From assembly GCF_018977255.1 (NCBI RefSeq), contig NW_024704744.1, positions 38,378,001-38,442,000 of the forward strand: 64,000 bases of DNA, in the 5' to 3' direction. The DNA is from Callorhinchus milii. Lineage: Eukaryota. This document shows positions 1-46,100 of this stretch, in pieces. The position numbers and the translations under genes were made by a program. The first letter of the stretch is position 1. Every line of letters begins with the position of its first letter. Under the pieces are notes generated by a model. The model was not told where the DNA came from, did not search any database, and saw only the letters and a list, made by a program, of their open reading frames with translations.

Positions 1-1820
1 TCTCTCTCCCTAGAGAGATGCATTCTCCTTACTTAATTCTTGGGAGCATTAGGTGCAGATTGTCAAGAATCAAGGTTCGGGAACCCCAGAGAGTGCACTG
101 GAGAACTGCAGGGGCTTAACCAGATAAAAATCACAGAACTTGCCATTGAGAGCACTGGCTGCCAAGCTTCCCACTGCTCTTTCAACAGTTCCAACAATGC
201 GATAAAGCACTGTATCAAAACCAAGGATTATTATAAAATGAGTTGAGATTTAACATCCATGCTCCCCCTCCCCCTCCCCACCCCGCCTCCCCCCAACAAC
301 ATGTAGTTAGATGACATATTCCAGTTTAAAGTCAGTTTACTGGTCACAATAGTCAATGGAATTTGAGATGCATTTGTTAAAACTATAGAATCTATTCAGG
401 AAAAGTAAGCTCACAATCGAAATTCACGTAAAAAAAAATCTGTGATATTATCAAAGAGACTGCAGGAACTGGAGCCTCTTTGATTAAATCCAACATGGAT
501 TTAATTGATTCCAAAGAGCACGACCCTAGAAAGCTCCCCTGGAACAAAAACACTTGTCATGCTATAAGTGATTAATTTGCCAGAAAAAAATAACTCCAGA
601 AAATGGGAGAGTGAAGACCTGGGATACTGCCTCATCTAGATTTTAACAAGCCTGCTTTCTACAGGAAGGACCTGTCACCAACATAATATTTCAGCTCTTT
701 TGTTGGTTACCGAAACCTAGATAAGTTGACATTGTTTTATTGCAAAGCCTTATATAATTGTTGGATCGTATTCCTTGGCATTTTACTGGATACAATGGGC
801 TGCATGAGCAGCTCTTTCAGAGTGGCTAATTCTGAGGCGGTTTTAACTGAATGGCTTAAAAAAGAAACAAGATGTGAGTGTGATGTAATTGATTATGTGA
901 AATCTTAAAGTAGACAAGATACATACAAGTGTCAAACAGTTTTGCAGTCAAACACAACTTCTGAACAAGTAGGACTGTGAAATCCCAGGACTTTTCAAAG
1001 GATGCTCGACTTCCTGCACTGACAGCATCCTGATTTATTTAGCATAAGGAAATTGATTTCACTGCACCTTCTGATCCAATTACAAAACGACGAGCAGTTC
1101 AATTTTAAATGCACAAAGGCAGCATTTCTCACTTCATTTCCCCAAGACCCCAGTGCACATTCAGCACAAAGCTAATACTGACTGTGCAGTGCTCCCCATC
1201 ATTGTTTTAAAAAAATGATCATAAGTGAACGTAACAGATTTGATTGTAATATTTCAATCCTGTCTTGCAGAATGGCTTGCGAAGGATTCTGGAGAATGGG
1301 AACCACCAAATGACCAGCAGTAGGTGTCCGAGAGAAGAAGGAGATGACATTCTGAGACAGTACTGTCAGGAAACAGACTCTAACACACTTTTCCCATGCA
1401 ATTCTCTCGCAACAAAAAATCCTACATGAATGCTAAAGTTAGAATTTCATGTTGCAACTTTGATGTTTGTATTCCACTCTGCTGTCACTAAATACAGAAT
1501 GATAACAGATTATTCCCAAAACAAACAAACACAGATTTATATCAAGCAATATTCTTAAAACATGACTTAAAGAAAATCACAATCAGTGCATTACAACAAC
1601 AAAATGACATTTATAAAAGTGCTTTTCACATTGGGAGGATATTAACTTTTGGCCACAGAATTATAGAAATAAAATTGAAAGAGAGAACTTGCATTTTATT
1701 TCAAAATCAAAACAGGTAATCACAGGTAATTATTGACCAATATTTTTGGAGGTAAACATGGTCCTACTTGAAAGGTTAAGTAATAAAATGAGAACTATTG
1801 GACAGGGAAAACATTTATTT

Positions 1821-21645: not shown

Positions 21646-22947
21646 TTTTGTTGTTATTAGTTACACTACACCTGAAAATCACTTCATGCCCTGGCACCTC
21701 CCTTCCTCTCTGGCACAATCACACTCCACTTCTCTCTCCTCCCCCTTCTCTCAGCTAGATGTCCGTCATCCCCTCCGCTCCACAAATGGTAGCCATGGTT
21801 TCAACACTATCCGCCGACCCTCTAGAACTCCATGCCCCAATCCCTTCCATCTTCCTCCCTCTTTTCCTGCATTGGGACGTACTCCTAAAGTCTCCTAGCT
21901 ATATAATTGCGATTTGCTTGTTCAGATCACCTGAAGACTTTCCTTTTCGATCATGCCTACAGTCATATTTTCTTTTGGCCCAGCCTGACATCAACTATGA
22001 CATTGTGCAGCGTTCCAAGATGCTAGCTCATGTGAAGGGCACTGTACAAATGCAAGTTGTTGTATATCTTGTGAAGAACTTTTGAGACGTCCTCCTGACG
22101 TGGAAGGTGTTATCCCAAATGTGAGAATGTTTTTACTTCTGTCCAAGTCAGATGTATTTTACTCAAGTAAATAAAGATATCAGGAAAACCAAACATTGGG
22201 AGTACACCAGAACGCTTTTAAATTGCAACTTGATGTGGATACTTCGAATTCCATTTCTTAATGAAGTGCCAAGAAGAATTTAAACAATGTGTGTATCCAT
22301 CTGGGTTAGTCTTTTCTGCAGAATTACTTCAGCAAATAAAAAATTAGTTTTTCCCTATTTTTAATGGGATAGGTCAGCCGAGTCTTAACATGAGCTTTCC
22401 CGACTTCAGCAATGATTCCATGCTGCACAGAGGGAATGTGTGGAATAAGGTGAAATGTTACACCAGAGACTTGACCATATGGACTTCCTTGTGGATTTAT
22501 GTTGGTCAGGTCACAAGTGGAAACCATTTCATATCCCATGGATCACTGCCACATATCAAACTCTCTGCAATTCCACCAATTTCACATAAAACTCTGCATA
22601 GGAAGGAGTTTGTACTATACAAAGTGGTTTACAACTGGTAATATTTTGTTTAAAGCCACACTTATAAAGTCAACGTGAATAGATTTTTCCAAACTATAAG
22701 CCAATTATTTGGTCGTAGGAATGAGTAGAAATCTAGGTTTCTTTAAACTTTTAACTGTTCTGAGTGCAATTGAGTGCACCTTCATGAGTAGGGTAGTCCC
22801 AACTGGACAAACAACAGTGCATTTTTAGCTGGTTAAACTCTGGCAATACCAACTCTTTACCTCTCATCAATGTGCATCACATACCCTCTGGAATTAGGTA
22901 AACAAGGATGTGTCCCTTCATGGAGAGATTGTGTATTCTGTATAAAT

Positions 22948-23120
22948 GATAATGATCCTTGCATTTGATATCACATCTTATTACATCATTGAGATGTCAC
23001 ATAGCACTTCACAGGAAATATTGTAAAGTGAATTGACTGTGTATTTTGTGGATGAAATGCGGCAGCTAGATGCACATAGCAGTGTCCCACAAACTGTCGT
23101 GGATGGAGTGAACAAATGTT
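22948..23120 (-). mobile_element. SINE 3' fragment
   Basis: atccttgcatttgatat...gtaaagtgaattgactgt...cagtgtcccacaaac. Confidence 0.8.
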
Positions 23121-24023
23121 TTAATGTTTCCATGCCAGAAACAAAGACATGTCCATGTATTGGTGGTATATACATGTGGAACTCTATCTGTTTAGGATAC
23201 TCTTGAGCACTGTTATTGTGTTCCGCATATGTCAGACACCTGCCTGACCCCCTAAAAAAGAGCTTTGGTCAATTTTGGACTAAGATTTCATCAGATCAGA
23301 TTTGACTTGTATTTTAAGTTAGGTGTTTGCTCATTCCTCCTATACTACCCAAGTACAAGAAATAAACTGAATAAAATTGCAGCAAATGTATTTCTAAACC
23401 CATTTTCTCAGTACAATTACCCCTATATAATTTCATGTTTCATAACTGGATTGACATAATTACATCTTTGTGAAGCTAAAATGTCTCTTGAGGAGCTATG
23501 GAATTTAAGTCCAAATCTGTCTCCTGGACATAAAAATGTGCATTCACCAATTCTATGCTGGTGAATATACTTTTGGAGAGCTAAGCACAGCCCAGGATAG
23601 TGAATGGATGTTGCGCTGTCTGACGAGTTTTCTTTATTCAGTCCAGATTTCCAGTTACTTGTTGCCCAACAGCGTAATAAATGATACAATATGCCTTCAA
23701 AAAATTAATCCTGTAAATTACAACACAAGAGAACCATTGAAACAATTAGCATCCATAATCTTTGTTTGAAGCCATAATAATATTGTTTCTTAATATCTCC
23801 CACTTCTTATTGTAACAGCATTACACAAAATTGGACAAGTTGTGTACAGCGACGATCCACAATTTGAAATATAAAACCGTTAAGAGAACAAATAAGCAAG
23901 ACATAAATTGTAATTATTAGAGACAAAAGGAATGCAGAGTTATGATAAAGTGATATGCATGCCACAGCATTTAGTTTGTGAACAGGATTAGACAAAGAGC
24001 TTGGGTTATGCAACGGTGTGAGT

Positions 24024-39716: not shown

Positions 39717-40377
39717 AAATGTAATTATTATCAATAAAAAATATAAATGGATTTTTCAACACCATGATGTAGCCATGGGTATTGCTGACTTTCTCTGAAA
39801 TAAAATGTCAATGACTGGTGTTGCACTGCTTAAAACAGGAAAGGCTTTACAATGAGGAACTTCCTTTCTCTGGTTCCCCCATTGCCTTTCAACAAGGAGG
39901 ATGGAGCAGATTTTCTGTACCGTTAGGCTGCATAGAGTTTGCAGGACCAGTATAATTACTTTGCTGGACAAAAGCTGATCACCAGAAGAAGTGACCTTCT
40001 GGCCCACACACAGTTCTAATTTAAGTTTAGTCTTTGCCCTTTAATGCACCAGTCATTAGCGGTCACAAAACCATTTCAAGCATTTCACAACTGCACAGAA
40101 TATTTCATTTGACACTTACTCATTTTCTCTCACGTGCTCAAAATAATCAAATGAGCTTTAAAAGATCACTCACGACTTAAATGCCTTTGGCAAGTTTTAT
40201 TTTCTTCCGAACTCCATATTCCCTCAACAAGATTAGTAAAAAAAATTGTTTGCCCATATTAAACGTGAATGCTAAATACATCACTTTTGTGAACTGCACC
40301 ACTTTTAGAGGACATGGGGAGAGTGATGAGAAGAGTCATCTTCTAGACTATTCCTACTGAGATTGAAGAAGCATTAA

Positions 40378-40869: not shown

Positions 40870-43100
40870 CTACTGACGATAGATGCGTCTGTCCCTGGCT
40901 CAGATCTGCCTTACATCAGGTAAGAAACAGAAGATACATTCCACTGCCACAAATACAAATCTGCAGCCTGGAAGATTTTAACCTCAAACCCAAATCTTTC
41001 TTCTGCTATCTGAAATCTGTTGTCAGGCATGACCGGAGCGGCCCCTCTGGGTCCAATACCAGTATTGGACAAGTCTGGTGTTCTACAACAGACCCACAAG
41101 GGTATCCTTGGGATCTGGAGGGAATATTATGAGGAGTTGGCCTCTGACCCAACAGGCCTCAGCAGAGACACATCTGCAGGGAGGCTGGAAGAGCTGCCGG
41201 GAGACATGGACCAGATTGAAAACCTAAATAACCCAATCTGCTGGGAGAAGCTGGACTCCGCACTCTGGTGCCAATGCAAAGGCAGCTGGACTGCATCAAT
41301 GCTGAATTCCTAAAAGCTGCTCTGAGGAAGGAGATGGGGAACGGTGAGGATCTTACAGATCCAAGCCAAGAACCCCCAACTCACCTTGGAGCTGCCCTCC
41401 TAGAGCTAGTCAACAGGATTCTCTCTGAGAATCGCACCCCGTCAGTGTTCCAGAGTGTCTCTCCACAGTAAGGGTGACCCTAGTGACACCGATAACTACA
41501 GAGGGATCTCGCTGATTTCAGTGGAAATGGTGCTCTGGGTAAGTCACTGCACATATATCACACTCATTGGAGGCTCACAGTGTGATCAGGAAGGAGTAGG
41601 CTAGCTTCTGTTCTCATGAGGAATATGTGGGCAGGTTGTGGCTCTGCATGAAATTGCAGAATGCCATAAGGTTGAGGGGAAACTCAACTATGTTGCATTC
41701 ATCTACTTTCGCAAGGCTTTCGATCCAGTGCTTCCTGAGGTCCTCATGACAAGACTGGAAGCCATGGGAGTACCTGGCCAAATCCTGGATTATATCCGGA
41801 ATGTGTACTCCAGCTCCAAGATCTGTGCGCGGGTCGATGGTGGACTTACTGAGCCCATCCCTTTGGAAAGGGGGGAAAGGCATTGCCCATTGTCACCCAC
41901 CCTGTTCGATGTGTTCATCAACATTAGATGGCATCAAGGGGGAAGGACTTGGTGTATCTGTTCCAGGCCTCTCTTTGACAGGATTGCAGGGCTTCTGTTT
42001 GCGGATGATATTGTGCTGCTGGCAGACTCACCTGGGGACCTTCTACACTGCACCCACCATCTTGAACCAACTGGTGGGACATGGTGGTAGGTAACCCCAA
42101 GTCCGGAATCATGATTCTCCACAGTCCAAAGGAAGACATTGAAAGCAGTGATTGTAAGATACAAGGGGCATCAGTCCCAATTGTTGACTCTTATCAGTAT
42201 CTCGGGGTTGTGGTGGACACCAACTTCTGTTGAAGGACCGAGCTGAGAAGGGGTGATCAACCCTCTTCTAGGACAGCAAGTCCCAATGCAGGTCAAGCTT
42301 GTGGCATACAAGACCTGCGTGCGAACAATCCTCTTTTACGGATCTGACTCATCTGCAAAGTCCAGGATCAAGCAATGAGGTGGATTTGTGGTAAACACGG
42401 GAAGCAGCTACAGGGAGAGATGGCTCCAGCCTACACTGATCTGGATAGAAAGACGGTGGCAATGCTATCACCCATTTCATGTTGAAATATGTTTCCCACC
42501 GGGAAGCTCGCAGGGAGTTCCTTGTACCTACCATCCACCTAGTGAGGCTCAAACCTGCACTTGTTGGATGTCGAACCAACTAGTGACTATCCTCCTTGGG
42601 GCAGGGTCTCTTTGGAGCTGAACATGCTTGGCAATGGAATATCGAATCTGGCCAGCCCTCTGTGGAGGGCTCAGTAGTCCGGTTGCTGAGAACAACAACC
42701 ACAAAATTACATTTATAAAGCGCCTTTTAAGTCGGGAGGCAGGCAGCTCTGCTGTATTCCAGGGCACTTCTGATGAGAGCACAACCAGCCTGGCTCATTG
42801 GCAGGACCTGGAAGGGCAGACCATTCACTGGGGGCAGGGAGTCATCCCACTCAGCTCCTGTTAATCCTGCAAGCCAAAGTCCTAACGGGAAGGGTGGTCC
42901 TAGCTGGACTAGCAGCAAGATAGCAATATGAATGGAACACTATGCGGTTTTAGCTAGATGGACTCTAGCAGTACCCCAACGCACCCTTTGGGGTTCCCAA
43001 GCCTTGGCTCTTGCCAACCTGCACCTAATACTTTCCAGAATTGGGTAAGCAGGATGCGTCGTTCCAGGGAGAAAGTGTGCATTCCATTCCAACAATCTAC
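40870..43100 (+). mobile_element. Decayed non-LTR retrotransposon RT region, RTE/RTEX-like (distinct from local L2 and CR1)
   Basis: Frameshifted pieces: IWREYYEELASDPTGLSRD; LDCINAEFLK; KGDPSDTDNYRGISLIS (41470-41520); VAFIYFRKAFDPV; ERGERH-CPLSPTLFDVFIN; GVSVPGL; IAGLLFADDIVLLADS; YQYLGV (42191-42208). Confidence 0.88.
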
Positions 43101-46100
43101 CTTTGGGATATCCATGTGTAGGTGGGATGCATGGAAATCTCAGCTTGGTTTGGATACTCTTAAGCATGGTGATGGGTTTTTGTATGAGTCAAACACCCAG
43201 CTGACAACAAAAAAAATCTCAATAGAAAAACACACCACTCCTCGACCATCGTCAAGTAACAATCGGAACAATTTTCCTGTCAAATGATACTTTGCAGTGC
43301 CTCGTTTTCCACTAAATGCCTTCCCAACAGTTGACTGAATTGAACAATTGACTGTGCACATAAATCTGGGCACAAACAATATGTACCACCACAATGTGGT
43401 GTAGCACCTCCCAACACTTGCCAGAATTTCAGTCTTTGGGCATATTTCTTACATACAACATTGTAAAGTAAAATGTGATTCAACTGAAGCAATCCAGGTT
43501 TTTGTTTCAAGAACCAAGAGAGCAAATTAAGAGATCAGCTAATTGAAAGCTTACTAAACTTGATTAGTGGATTAATACTGTAGTTCCAGTTTGTGTACAT
43601 TTTGGAAACACAAAGATCAGATTCAAAATAATTGGAACGCCAAAGGCACAATGCCTTTTGCTCAAAATAAATCACACATCAACACAGCCTTTAGGTTCTA
43701 ACTGCTGTGGTGCTTTGGAATCCATTTAATCACATCTTGAAAAAATCCTGATAAAATTCTTTCAACTTCTAACCAGTTTTAATTATGAACAACAGCTGTT
43801 AATGAAGTCATGACAGCACATTTTAAACTCAGAGTCTAAAATTCAGGGTTCAAGATAACCTATGGAACTGCCGCTCTTTTAATATAGGACTAGCACCATT
43901 CCTCCCATGACCCTGGGTCACACATGGCTTACCCTTGTGACCTGGGGACATGCACAATTTCCCCCTTTGACTTAGGAACACACACTAGCCATCTCCTGAT
44001 CTGGAGAGAACCATATGTACTAAATAACAATTCGTAACAAGAAAGTTTTTTAACAAAAATAAATCTTACTTCATCAGAAATTATTCGGTGCATCTTATTC
44101 CATTTCAGTTAGATTGGGGAATTATTTAATTTTCTTTCTTGTGTCTTCTTTTTTAGAAAAAGAGAATTAACATTTGAGCTATTAAATGAGTATTAATTGC
44201 ATCAATTTTAAAATGATATACTCAAACTTCTTAATTAACTTAACGTAAAAATCCTAAGTGATGTGACATCTGTAATCTGATCCTGGAATAGCAGTTGAGA
44301 AAAATAGGGGGTGGACTATGGAGAGGAAGAGAAACATTTTAGCAAGGGCTCAAAGCTATCCTTAAAAGTCATATATTACAGCACATGCATCTTGGTGGAT
44401 TCTCAAAAATTCCATTTTGGTTTGGATAAAGCTCAGTGGAGCTAGCCCACCCAAACTATATCTGTACAAATAATCATTCTGCTAGATCCAATACCTTGAT
44501 ACCATCTTTGTAAACAGATCGAGTGCAGGATTTATTTACTTAGGTAGAACTATGGGTTAAGATGCTACACTGGCTATAACTATGCAGAGTGAAAAATCTT
44601 TTAAAGAACAATTATCCATGGAATTCCACATATCCACAAGTTACTCCCACTGAGAAGTTCAGAAGTAGTAAAAGTTTACAGGATGACCTATAGAAAAGTA
44701 ACAATGGACAGAAAGCTAGATATAGGCGATGGGAGGTAGGGGGGGTGACAGAGAGCAACGGAGGTAACAAGGGAGGAGGATGGGGCTGGGGCGAGGGAAC
44801 AATGAAAAAAGGCAACTACAGAAGACGGCAAAGACGACCATAACAGTGAGACATTGTGATATTGATGGCTAGTCTAGTTATGAAAACGATCTGAAATAAT
44901 AACCTGATTTCCAAAACATTAGGTGTTAGAACTGAAGAAACTGCTCCCCTCCAATTAATTTGCACCAATCTTCACCCAAACACACCATCTTCCATTGGCT
45001 GTGAAAATTCTTGACTTTTTTAAAAAAGAACGGACTTGTAGCTGCAGGGCTCCATTCCATGATAATCCGCAGTGTGCAATTTAAAAATCAATCTTAGAAC
45101 CTGGCAAATTGTATTCAATGTTTAAACAAAAGAGACCCAAAAGCGTGTGAGCTACAAAACCTACAGGCAATTGATTATGCTTTGAAACTGACTTGCTGTG
45201 TGACAATCTGGTGGCTGACATTAATGCTTTCTCCCTTTCAAAAGTACAATTCAGGGAGGCTGCAGAGCAGATTCACTGAGAAGCTGTTGCTTGAAAGCAG
45301 AGGCTTTCATAAAATGAATCAGATTAATAAAAAAGCAGGACAAAGAAAACTTAACGCAGCATATTGTTCCCTTCCTCCGAACCTTCCCTTTAAAATGTAC
45401 ACGTGCCTTGTAAAAAAAAAGAAACGCTGCTCCTTCCAGTTTCCTGAATCCACTCTGATCGCTATAAATGTGGAGCCTGTGCTTCCCTCATACGGATATC
45501 TAAAAGGAGCTCCACCTGAAAGCTGCCCCTCATAGTCAGGACACATGCACAAATCTCTGTAATGGATCACAGACACAGCCATGCATTTCAGGCATGAAAG
45601 AGGGAGATTTGCAAAGTGCTGTGAAATCACAAAAAAGTGACTTTACTTACAGCAGGAGAAAGAGGAACATTACAGTGTGATGTGCATTAGTTCACAACAC
45701 ACTCGGAAATCCTCCTTTGTTCACTGCATTCTGTCTTAAATTGGCTACTTTTTCCACTGGCACTAATTTCTGGTATTCCTCTTGGTTTCGCTATTTCCTT
45801 TCATTTTCTGTTTAACCAGGTTCCTTTTTCTCAGGGCAAAAATTTCATTGTCTGCTTCACTCACTCTCTGACACACATTTCCTTCATCTATAATGATGTG
45901 GACTTCTCTTCATTCATACCAGATTTGAATGTAGTTTACAATAAAGAGTGACCGAGAAGAACACAAGGCAATGAAAATAAATATAATATAAAAAAGAATT
46001 TATATATATATAAAAAAGTTAGATACACACTCATGCACACACTACAGTATGTCGTTATAGGGCACTAGTTGGGAGGCCATGAAATTTCAACCCACGCTAT

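Follow-up and report, generated by a model that had tools for sequence, protein, structure and literature searches.

The window, a 64-kb stretch of Callorhinchus milii DNA, contains the decayed remains of an abundant, extinct LINE family that, judged by its RT sequence, appears to belong to a distinct and little-described APE-RT lineage. We consider it probable, at roughly 0.6, that this lineage reached the ancestors of these fish from a non-vertebrate host by ancient horizontal entry. The evidence comes from the structure and number of the copies, from the relatives of the family and their placement in an RT tree, and from the age of the insertion in the window, which is common to other species.

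Comparison with other copies of the family (nhmmer/blastn to the family consensus) sets the limits of the principal copy at 40985-43217 on the forward strand, in place of the 40870-43100 proposed by an earlier reading of this DNA (the sequence-only reading). The copy is 5'-truncated and its APE endonuclease region is gone. All six of the RT motifs picked out by that reading are borne out, on the forward strand between 41122 and 42010 and in three different frames (Table 1), and one stop-free piece of the copy matches Pfam RVT_1 at better than the cut-off (E 9.8e-10); the other eight stop-free pieces gave nothing significant against Pfam. The elevated GC content that it described (0.51, against 0.36-0.41 in the adjoining kilobases) and the frameshifts (14 small indels or inserts relative to the consensus, 10 with lengths that are not divisible by 3) are likewise found, and the insertion that it placed after an APG.D-like motif is real and is present in relatives of the family too. 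Divergence of the copy from the consensus amounts to a K2P distance of 0.079 at non-CpG sites, with 31% mismatch at CpG sites, and no target-site duplication (TSD) of at least 7 bp was found for it. A later insert of 48 bp, which we take to resemble an L2/SINE 3' tail, interrupts its 3' part. The copy is an inert fossil with no sign of function.

Table 1. Features of the window (positions in the 64-kb stretch; strand + is forward).
Feature	Position	Strand	Basis
Short 3' fragment of the same LINE family	2-162	-	nhmmer E 3e-22
Last two exons of the lin28b-like gene (end of the cold-shock domain, then a pair of CCHC knuckles)	~60363-60178 and 9344-8967	-	Pfam PF21890, E 5e-14
Interrupted 3' fragment of the same LINE family	22779-23259	+	nhmmer E 1.3e-13 and 1.5e-9
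Decayed LINE copy lacking its 5' part: roughly the 3' 60% of an element of ~4.3 kb, with an internal deletion	40985-43217	+	nhmmer/blastn to consensus
Linker remains and RT start; motifs W.E.Y.ELASDPTG.SRD, insertion after APG.D	40985-41470	+	clade motifs
Motif EYYEELASDPTGLSRD	41122	+	read in translation
Motif DPSQEPPTHLGAALLELVN	41358	+	read in translation
RT core and thumb, frameshifted (NYRGISLI 41494, FADD 41998-42009, YLGV, LLYG-like)	41470-42442	+	Pfam RVT_1, RT tree
Motif DNYRGISLI	41491	+	read in translation
Motif ASFCSHEE	41600	+	read in translation
Motif GVSVPGL	41951	+	read in translation
Motif RIAGLLFADD	41980	+	read in translation
Site of ~417-bp internal deletion; beyond it, the latter half of the region with the C-terminal CCHC knuckle	42443-42523	+	consensus 2823 joined to 3241 at 42443
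48-bp later insert of another abundant repeat	42692-42739		extra relative to consensus; separate matches at many loci; loose ends
ORF end, 3' UTR and A-rich tail (~43207-43217)	42740-43217	+	portion present in thousands of short copies

The copy sits on a 99-Mb contig, antisense within an intron of about 51 kb that makes up most of the 64-kb window and separates two exons of a gene that we take to be lin28b-like, the paralogue assignment being our own. A locus on another contig (L002, G000:C33:950047-955277) is 99.87% identical to the copy and both of its flanks and is probably either a haplotype duplicate of the lin28b-like region or the product of a segmental duplication there; a similar near-duplicate pair is formed by L025 and L026. 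Two intronic stretches of the window, 39821-40222 and 43571-44027, align in other species with 4-9% difference and are possibly conserved non-coding sequence. Four tRNA-like matches (Rfam RF00005; 19428-19499, 24668-24739, 28392-28463 and 39420-39491) are probably the heads of tRNA-derived SINEs. Elsewhere in the genome, many long open LINE ORFs of 800-1150 aa, which we provisionally label RTE-, Tx1-, Rex1- and Crack-like, cluster on small unplaced contigs (L173, L174, L179-L181, L184 and L195-L201 are examples), an arrangement that suggests young elements or repeat-dense clusters.

The sequence-only reading regarded the element as a single region of a rare family, and neither description holds. 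Two further loci of the family occur in the window (Table 1), and a control search of the reversed window with the family (nhmmer) gave no match. A search of the host genome (992 Mb) yielded 93 matches from the best 40 of 12,297 candidates, a candidate total that is inflated by the 48-bp foreign insert, and these matches are 66-92% identical when the window copy and its near-identical duplicate are left out. First-look candidates number 28 at the 5' end of the element, 159 in the endonuclease-linker region and 4,939 in the last 256 bp alone, and the last 450 bp are covered 100-1000 times more deeply than the RT. Scaling the three loci in 64 kb to the genome gives a rough figure of tens of thousands of copies, so that the family likely comprises that many, mostly short 3' fragments, in each genome.

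These short copies carry the signature of their mode of insertion. Each of the 28 that were examined is a 3' end, some 250-620 bp long, with an A-rich tail and a variable start point; they have no 5' head in common, and two of them have inverted 5' parts. A TSD of at least 7 bp flanks 5 of the 28, where the mean under the null is 0.8, and in 500 shuffles that number was never reached. A tails, variable 5' truncation and TSDs are marks of target-primed reverse transcription (TPRT), and the family shows all three. A SINE using the same 3' end, suggested by the 3' depth, was considered and rejected, since the short copies share no 5' head. About ten of the 28 (L058-L085) break at one G-rich spot about 580 bp from the 3' end, several with expansions of the G run, and this spot is a possible RT stall site. 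As to a conserved 3' stem-loop, four tails fold no better than shuffled sequences (z from -1.26 to +0.15).

Stacking of the copies recovers an element of about 4.3 kb that consists of a short 5' region, an N-terminal domain, APE, a linker, RT, thumb, a CCHC knuckle, a 3' UTR and poly-A. Family copies carry the APE motifs ATWNV, LQET, GDWN, IDH and SDHWP upstream of the RT, and the element is an APE-type non-LTR retrotransposon, in which APE precedes a non-LTR RT in one ORF. The family consensus still has frame breaks; the single-ORF model is based on the junction of N-terminal domain and APE, which is in frame in the host 5' consensus, and on intact relatives of 1190-1520 aa. No separate ORF1 was seen in the approximately 300 bp of common 5' sequence from 20 loci. 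The relatives match both PF03372 and PF00078 in 20 of 20 cases, and an N-domain profile finds the host 5' consensus at E 2.9e-7. Of 111 fetched proteins of at least 1200 aa, 90 match the N-domain profile (trained, for this count, on 17 slices), 106 possess the C-terminal CCHC and 65 the motif GFR..E[EQ]C. That motif is missing from all 57 other host LINE ORFs; among 23 metagenome ORFs it is present in four, all of them members of the clade described below, and the one match of the profile among 80 reference ORFs is also in that clade.

The N-terminal domain is predicted to adopt a ferredoxin/RRM-like fold. An AlphaFold model of the domain in the relatives (pLDDT 93) has the order beta-alpha-beta-beta-alpha-beta, and its structural neighbours include GUCT (Z 9.1, rmsd 3.0, 76 aligned) and many RRMs, the best at Z 8.6 with an rmsd of 2.1 over 73 residues. 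Foldseek ranks ACT, PII and eIF2-alpha domains over RRMs, so that the fold alone is no proof of RNA binding; none of 20 relatives has a Pfam RRM match, and a PDB sequence search with the domain gave nothing under E 0.19. RRMs are typical of LINE ORF1p, normally encoded in a separate ORF (PMC3905857, available sections), and by analogy with that context the domain may bind RNA.

The relatives were sought with a profile of 22 real in-frame host fragments. The best of them are metagenome proteins on contigs of 4-6 kb, and those that carry a name come from Blastocystis sp. JDR (KAK8831045.1), an Acanthocheilonema viteae assembly (VBB34653.1), a Gammaproteobacteria bin (P0211) and Smittium culicis (P0225, annotated 'Transposon TX1 protein'). 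In the RT, the best relative is 51% identical to the host consensus, the best proteins within the clade 48-51%, the named relatives 40-46% and the other LINEs of the host 20-30%. The Smittium fragment was placed by blastp only, with 177 bits to the host consensus and at most 117 to references outside the clade. The nematode-labelled protein VBB34653.1, on a 4-kb contig, is possibly a contaminant, and the bacterial label of P0211 would reflect binning contamination. The sequence-only reading had likened the element to LINEs of early-diverging fungi, microsporidia and algae; non-vertebrate kinship is supported by Smittium culicis, Blastocystis and the Acanthocheilonema-labelled protein, and the searches returned no microsporidian or algal name. 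No vertebrate name occurs among the named matches that three protein searches and a further three cluster look-ups returned, most matches carrying no host name. Atlas searches with the full protein gave no taxon names. The absence of vertebrate names is a weak argument because the word-index searches gave few matches (11, 13 and 5) and decayed vertebrate copies are rarely in protein databases; some of the clade relatives that lack a host name may come from animals.

Several other matches were set aside. P0057, the top representative match, lies outside the clade and owes its high score entirely to six repeated RT stretches; the same is true of P0135, with repeated RT stretches of its own. A viral vector was rejected: viral contigs gave one weak locus, outside the clade and at 27%, and phages gave no match. 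Nearly all relatives lie on element-sized contigs of 4-6 kb. In an intact member from a marine metagenome (L086:1-5931) the element's own 5' flank is repeated after the A-tail, pointing to either a head-to-tail arrangement in arrays or a fixed target. Two further clade members, L087 and L088, are very AT-rich metagenome sequences (29-30% GC), so that the clade adapts to very different host base compositions. Our literature search, whose coverage stopped short of subscription journals and Repbase Reports, found no paper on the family or its clade, and the accessible portions of PMC4350176, PMC9004415, PMC10294476, PMC4427930 and PMC5753468 contain no description of the family; PMC4427930 mentions the Deceiver and Inkcap clades by name only. 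The family may already be present in Repbase, Dfam or the supplements of papers.

Phylogenetic placement of the family was obtained from 55 RT domains (IQ-TREE, LG+G4), a subset of 73 run earlier in FastTree, comprising among others 29 relatives and 25 host and metagenome references that we assigned to classes (RTE-like, RTEX-like and others) by their motifs. The host family and its relatives (metagenome proteins, Blastocystis and the nematode-labelled protein) form one clade with 100/100 support on a stem of 0.54, apart in the best tree from the RTE-like, RTEX-like, CR1/L2/Rex1/I and Tx1/L1 groups; the bootstrap was not fully settled (correlation 0.932). Within the clade the branches are long and the arrangement star-like, with no fully supported sister group; a pairing of the host family with the nematode-labelled protein (93/89) is unstarred and is absent from the FastTree run. 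The Tx1/L1-like ORFs of the host constitute a 100/100 group of their own, and the N-terminal domain of the family runs in a single frame into APE; CR1, L2 and Rex1 fall in a separate 99/99 group. The family is unrelated to the local L2 and CR1, as the sequence-only reading held: an L2 query gave no tblastn match to this copy, and the RT tree separates the family from both. Its view that the element is not a vertebrate RTE of the BovB type is also upheld, grouping with three host BovB-like RTE ORFs being rejected at p-AU 6.8e-6. Its label 'RTE/RTEX-like' is supported only loosely. Holding the whole clade with six rows that are RTEX-like by motif only gives p-AU 0.236, so that this union is not rejected; it is not recovered either, since the best tree gives the family its own clade.

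These results bear on whether the family could be a regular RTEX or RTE family of vertebrates, its oddity due only to the want of a curated reference. The motifs NYRGISL and LLYG.E.WG and the C-terminal CCHC are shared with RTEX-like proteins, the union with RTEX-like references is tolerated at the p-AU value given above, and the available parts of PMC12477816 and PMC9926174 describe Ectocarpus elements with a single EN-RT ORF and Batrachochytrium LINEs that are filed as RTE-X. We nevertheless judge this explanation quite improbable, given the clade's full support and long stem, the rejected grouping with the host's BovB-like RTEs, the confinement of N-domain matches among the reference ORFs to one in-clade protein, and the (C)n tails, rather than poly-A, that the same Ectocarpus source gives for RTEX-1 and RTEX-2.

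The age of the family was estimated from 47 long copies, after overlapping loci had been merged and the near-duplicates L002 and L026 removed. The K2P distance to the consensus at non-CpG sites has a median of 0.106 (range 0.074-0.194), a value biased low because the best-scoring copies were sampled. Copies of the main group differ from one another by 0.197, some two times their distance to the consensus, which indicates a star-like family, and mismatch by codon position in the RT frame (0.107/0.078/0.110) shows the near-equal decay that is expected of dead copies. An older subfamily of seven copies lies about 0.13 from its own centre and has 30 of 1050 sites in common, against a maximum of 1.1% in 200 random sets. 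The family is extinct and consists of many star-like, neutrally decayed copies about 10% from their consensus.

A search that finds near-identical DNA only located the family in public contigs of the host species, of two other labelled organisms and of one unlabelled study. Contigs of runs X3, X7 and X8 span the 3' junction of the window insertion, and those of X3 also span the 5' junction; the X3 flanks differ from those of the host at 34 of 402 and 85 of 862 letters. In a second comparison, with X4 (taken from the X3 sample), X7, X9 and X10, none of the pieces listed crossed the 5' junction; the insertion junction was not seen in X9 and X10, an absence that carries no weight. Because junctions of the same insertion are bridged in contigs of other species, the insertion predates the species splits. 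If rates are equal, the main burst would be about twice as old as the split from the organism of X3. At the rate of 1.0-1.1e-3 per My given for elephant-shark SINEs in the accessible text of PMC5499810, the main burst dates to about 100 My; slower rates could place it at several hundred My, near the shark-chimaera split.

The match of its motifs to fungal and protist elements might point to contamination of the assembly, or to transfer in recent times from an extant parasite or symbiont. Both are excluded by the insertion shared with other species and by the decay of the copy (8%, with the CpG mismatch given above); the copy, moreover, lies in the lin28b-like intron of a 99-Mb contig and is present in other host individuals.

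Ancient horizontal entry is preferred to vertical inheritance because the named kin are fungal and protist and are fairly similar across supergroups. Under the vertical alternative, an old eukaryotic LINE lineage was kept through animal ancestry, remained active in the chimaera line and was lost, decayed or went unnoticed elsewhere. Such a history would fit the star-like clade with its long branches, its best identity of 51% and its lack of a close donor; it would also fit the two subfamilies, which imply long residence in the host, an insertion older than the splits from species with about 8-10% flank difference, and, as a lead only, weak Atlas matches of the N-terminal domain to arthropod-labelled clusters (score 0.82). 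It would, however, require many independent losses, no vertebrate appears among the named matches, and RT identities of 40-46% to Blastocystis and Smittium seem high for purely vertical descent across supergroups. We therefore regard a vertical relic as unlikely, although it retains appreciable weight. Nothing specific points to the parasite or symbiont donor that the sequence-only reading had proposed, the best relative reaching 51% in the RT and no sister being fully supported.

The probable history of the family can be outlined. The element would have arrived in the ancestors of these fish from a non-vertebrate. Its single protein would bind its own RNA through a fused RRM-like domain that replaces ORF1p; APE would nick the DNA, and the RNA would be copied from its poly-A end by TPRT, usually stopping early. 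The DNA marks of TPRT are observed; we infer the roles of the protein. Copying would have come in two or more waves, which divergence places at about 13% and 10%, before the family became extinct; the window copy was inserted antisense in the lin28b-like intron earlier than the separation of the host from related species. A bolder formulation is tentative and somewhat doubtful: that a clade of single-ORF LINEs living chiefly in fungi and protists, in which endonuclease-RT-CCHC carries a fused ORF1-like RRM, passed between kingdoms into a chimaera ancestor's germline and there left tens of thousands of copies.

More than 100 intact relatives with a one-protein design and a predicted RRM ahead of the endonuclease offer compact LINEs that are open to testing, and they may form a clade absent from the Repbase list. 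If sharks and other vertebrates lack the family, a non-vertebrate LINE would have successfully invaded a vertebrate germline. Because chimaera genomes evolve slowly the family is still legible, and insertions common to several species can be used to date the event and as phylogenetic markers.

Among known systems, the elements of Smittium culicis, Blastocystis sp. JDR and Acanthocheilonema viteae resemble the host family in D.TG.S before the RT, in the insertion after APG.D and in EQAGFR..E[EQ]C. They are distantly related to it and none is a demonstrated donor; the host family, compared with them, is extinct and CpG-decayed. RTEX elements likewise combine APE and an RT with NYRGISL, and RTEX-like references also share LLYG.E.WG and the C-terminal CCHC. 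The host family differs in its fused N-terminal RRM-like domain, in place of the separate ORF1, of esterase type in some RTEX, that is described in the sections of PMC3905857 at hand. Its poly-A tail differs from the (C)n tails of Ectocarpus RTEX-1/2_Ec32, a comparison made by description only from part of PMC12477816; the same text gives RTEX-1 and RTEX-2 a single EN-RT ORF, so that algal RTE-X too is without a separate ORF1 and the lack of one does not decide RTEX membership. Batrachochytrium LINEs, also compared by description only, are partly filed as RTE-X (PMC9926174, in excerpt), and RTEX has old vertebrate relics (PMC5753468, in excerpt). Vertebrate relics of the RTEX clade, which lies within the RTE group, are for example L4, L5 and ALINE. 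RTE elements of the BovB/Expander type, like the host family, have one ORF and lack a full ORF1, are heavily truncated at the 5' end and carry NYRGISL; they differ in that RT identity between the family and the host's own RTEs is 29% and their grouping is rejected. The RTE clade is a known horizontal transferer. L1/Tx1 elements share the order APE-RT-CCHC, a poly-A tail, short TSDs and inverted 5' parts like those of twin priming, and the best PDB match of the family is human L1 ORF2p (E 2e-85); the RT of the host family nevertheless lies outside that clade, at 23-26% identity, and L1 has its RRM in ORF1p, whereas the RRM-like domain of the host family is fused to the endonuclease instead. The host family works like a TPRT element of the L1 or RTE type.
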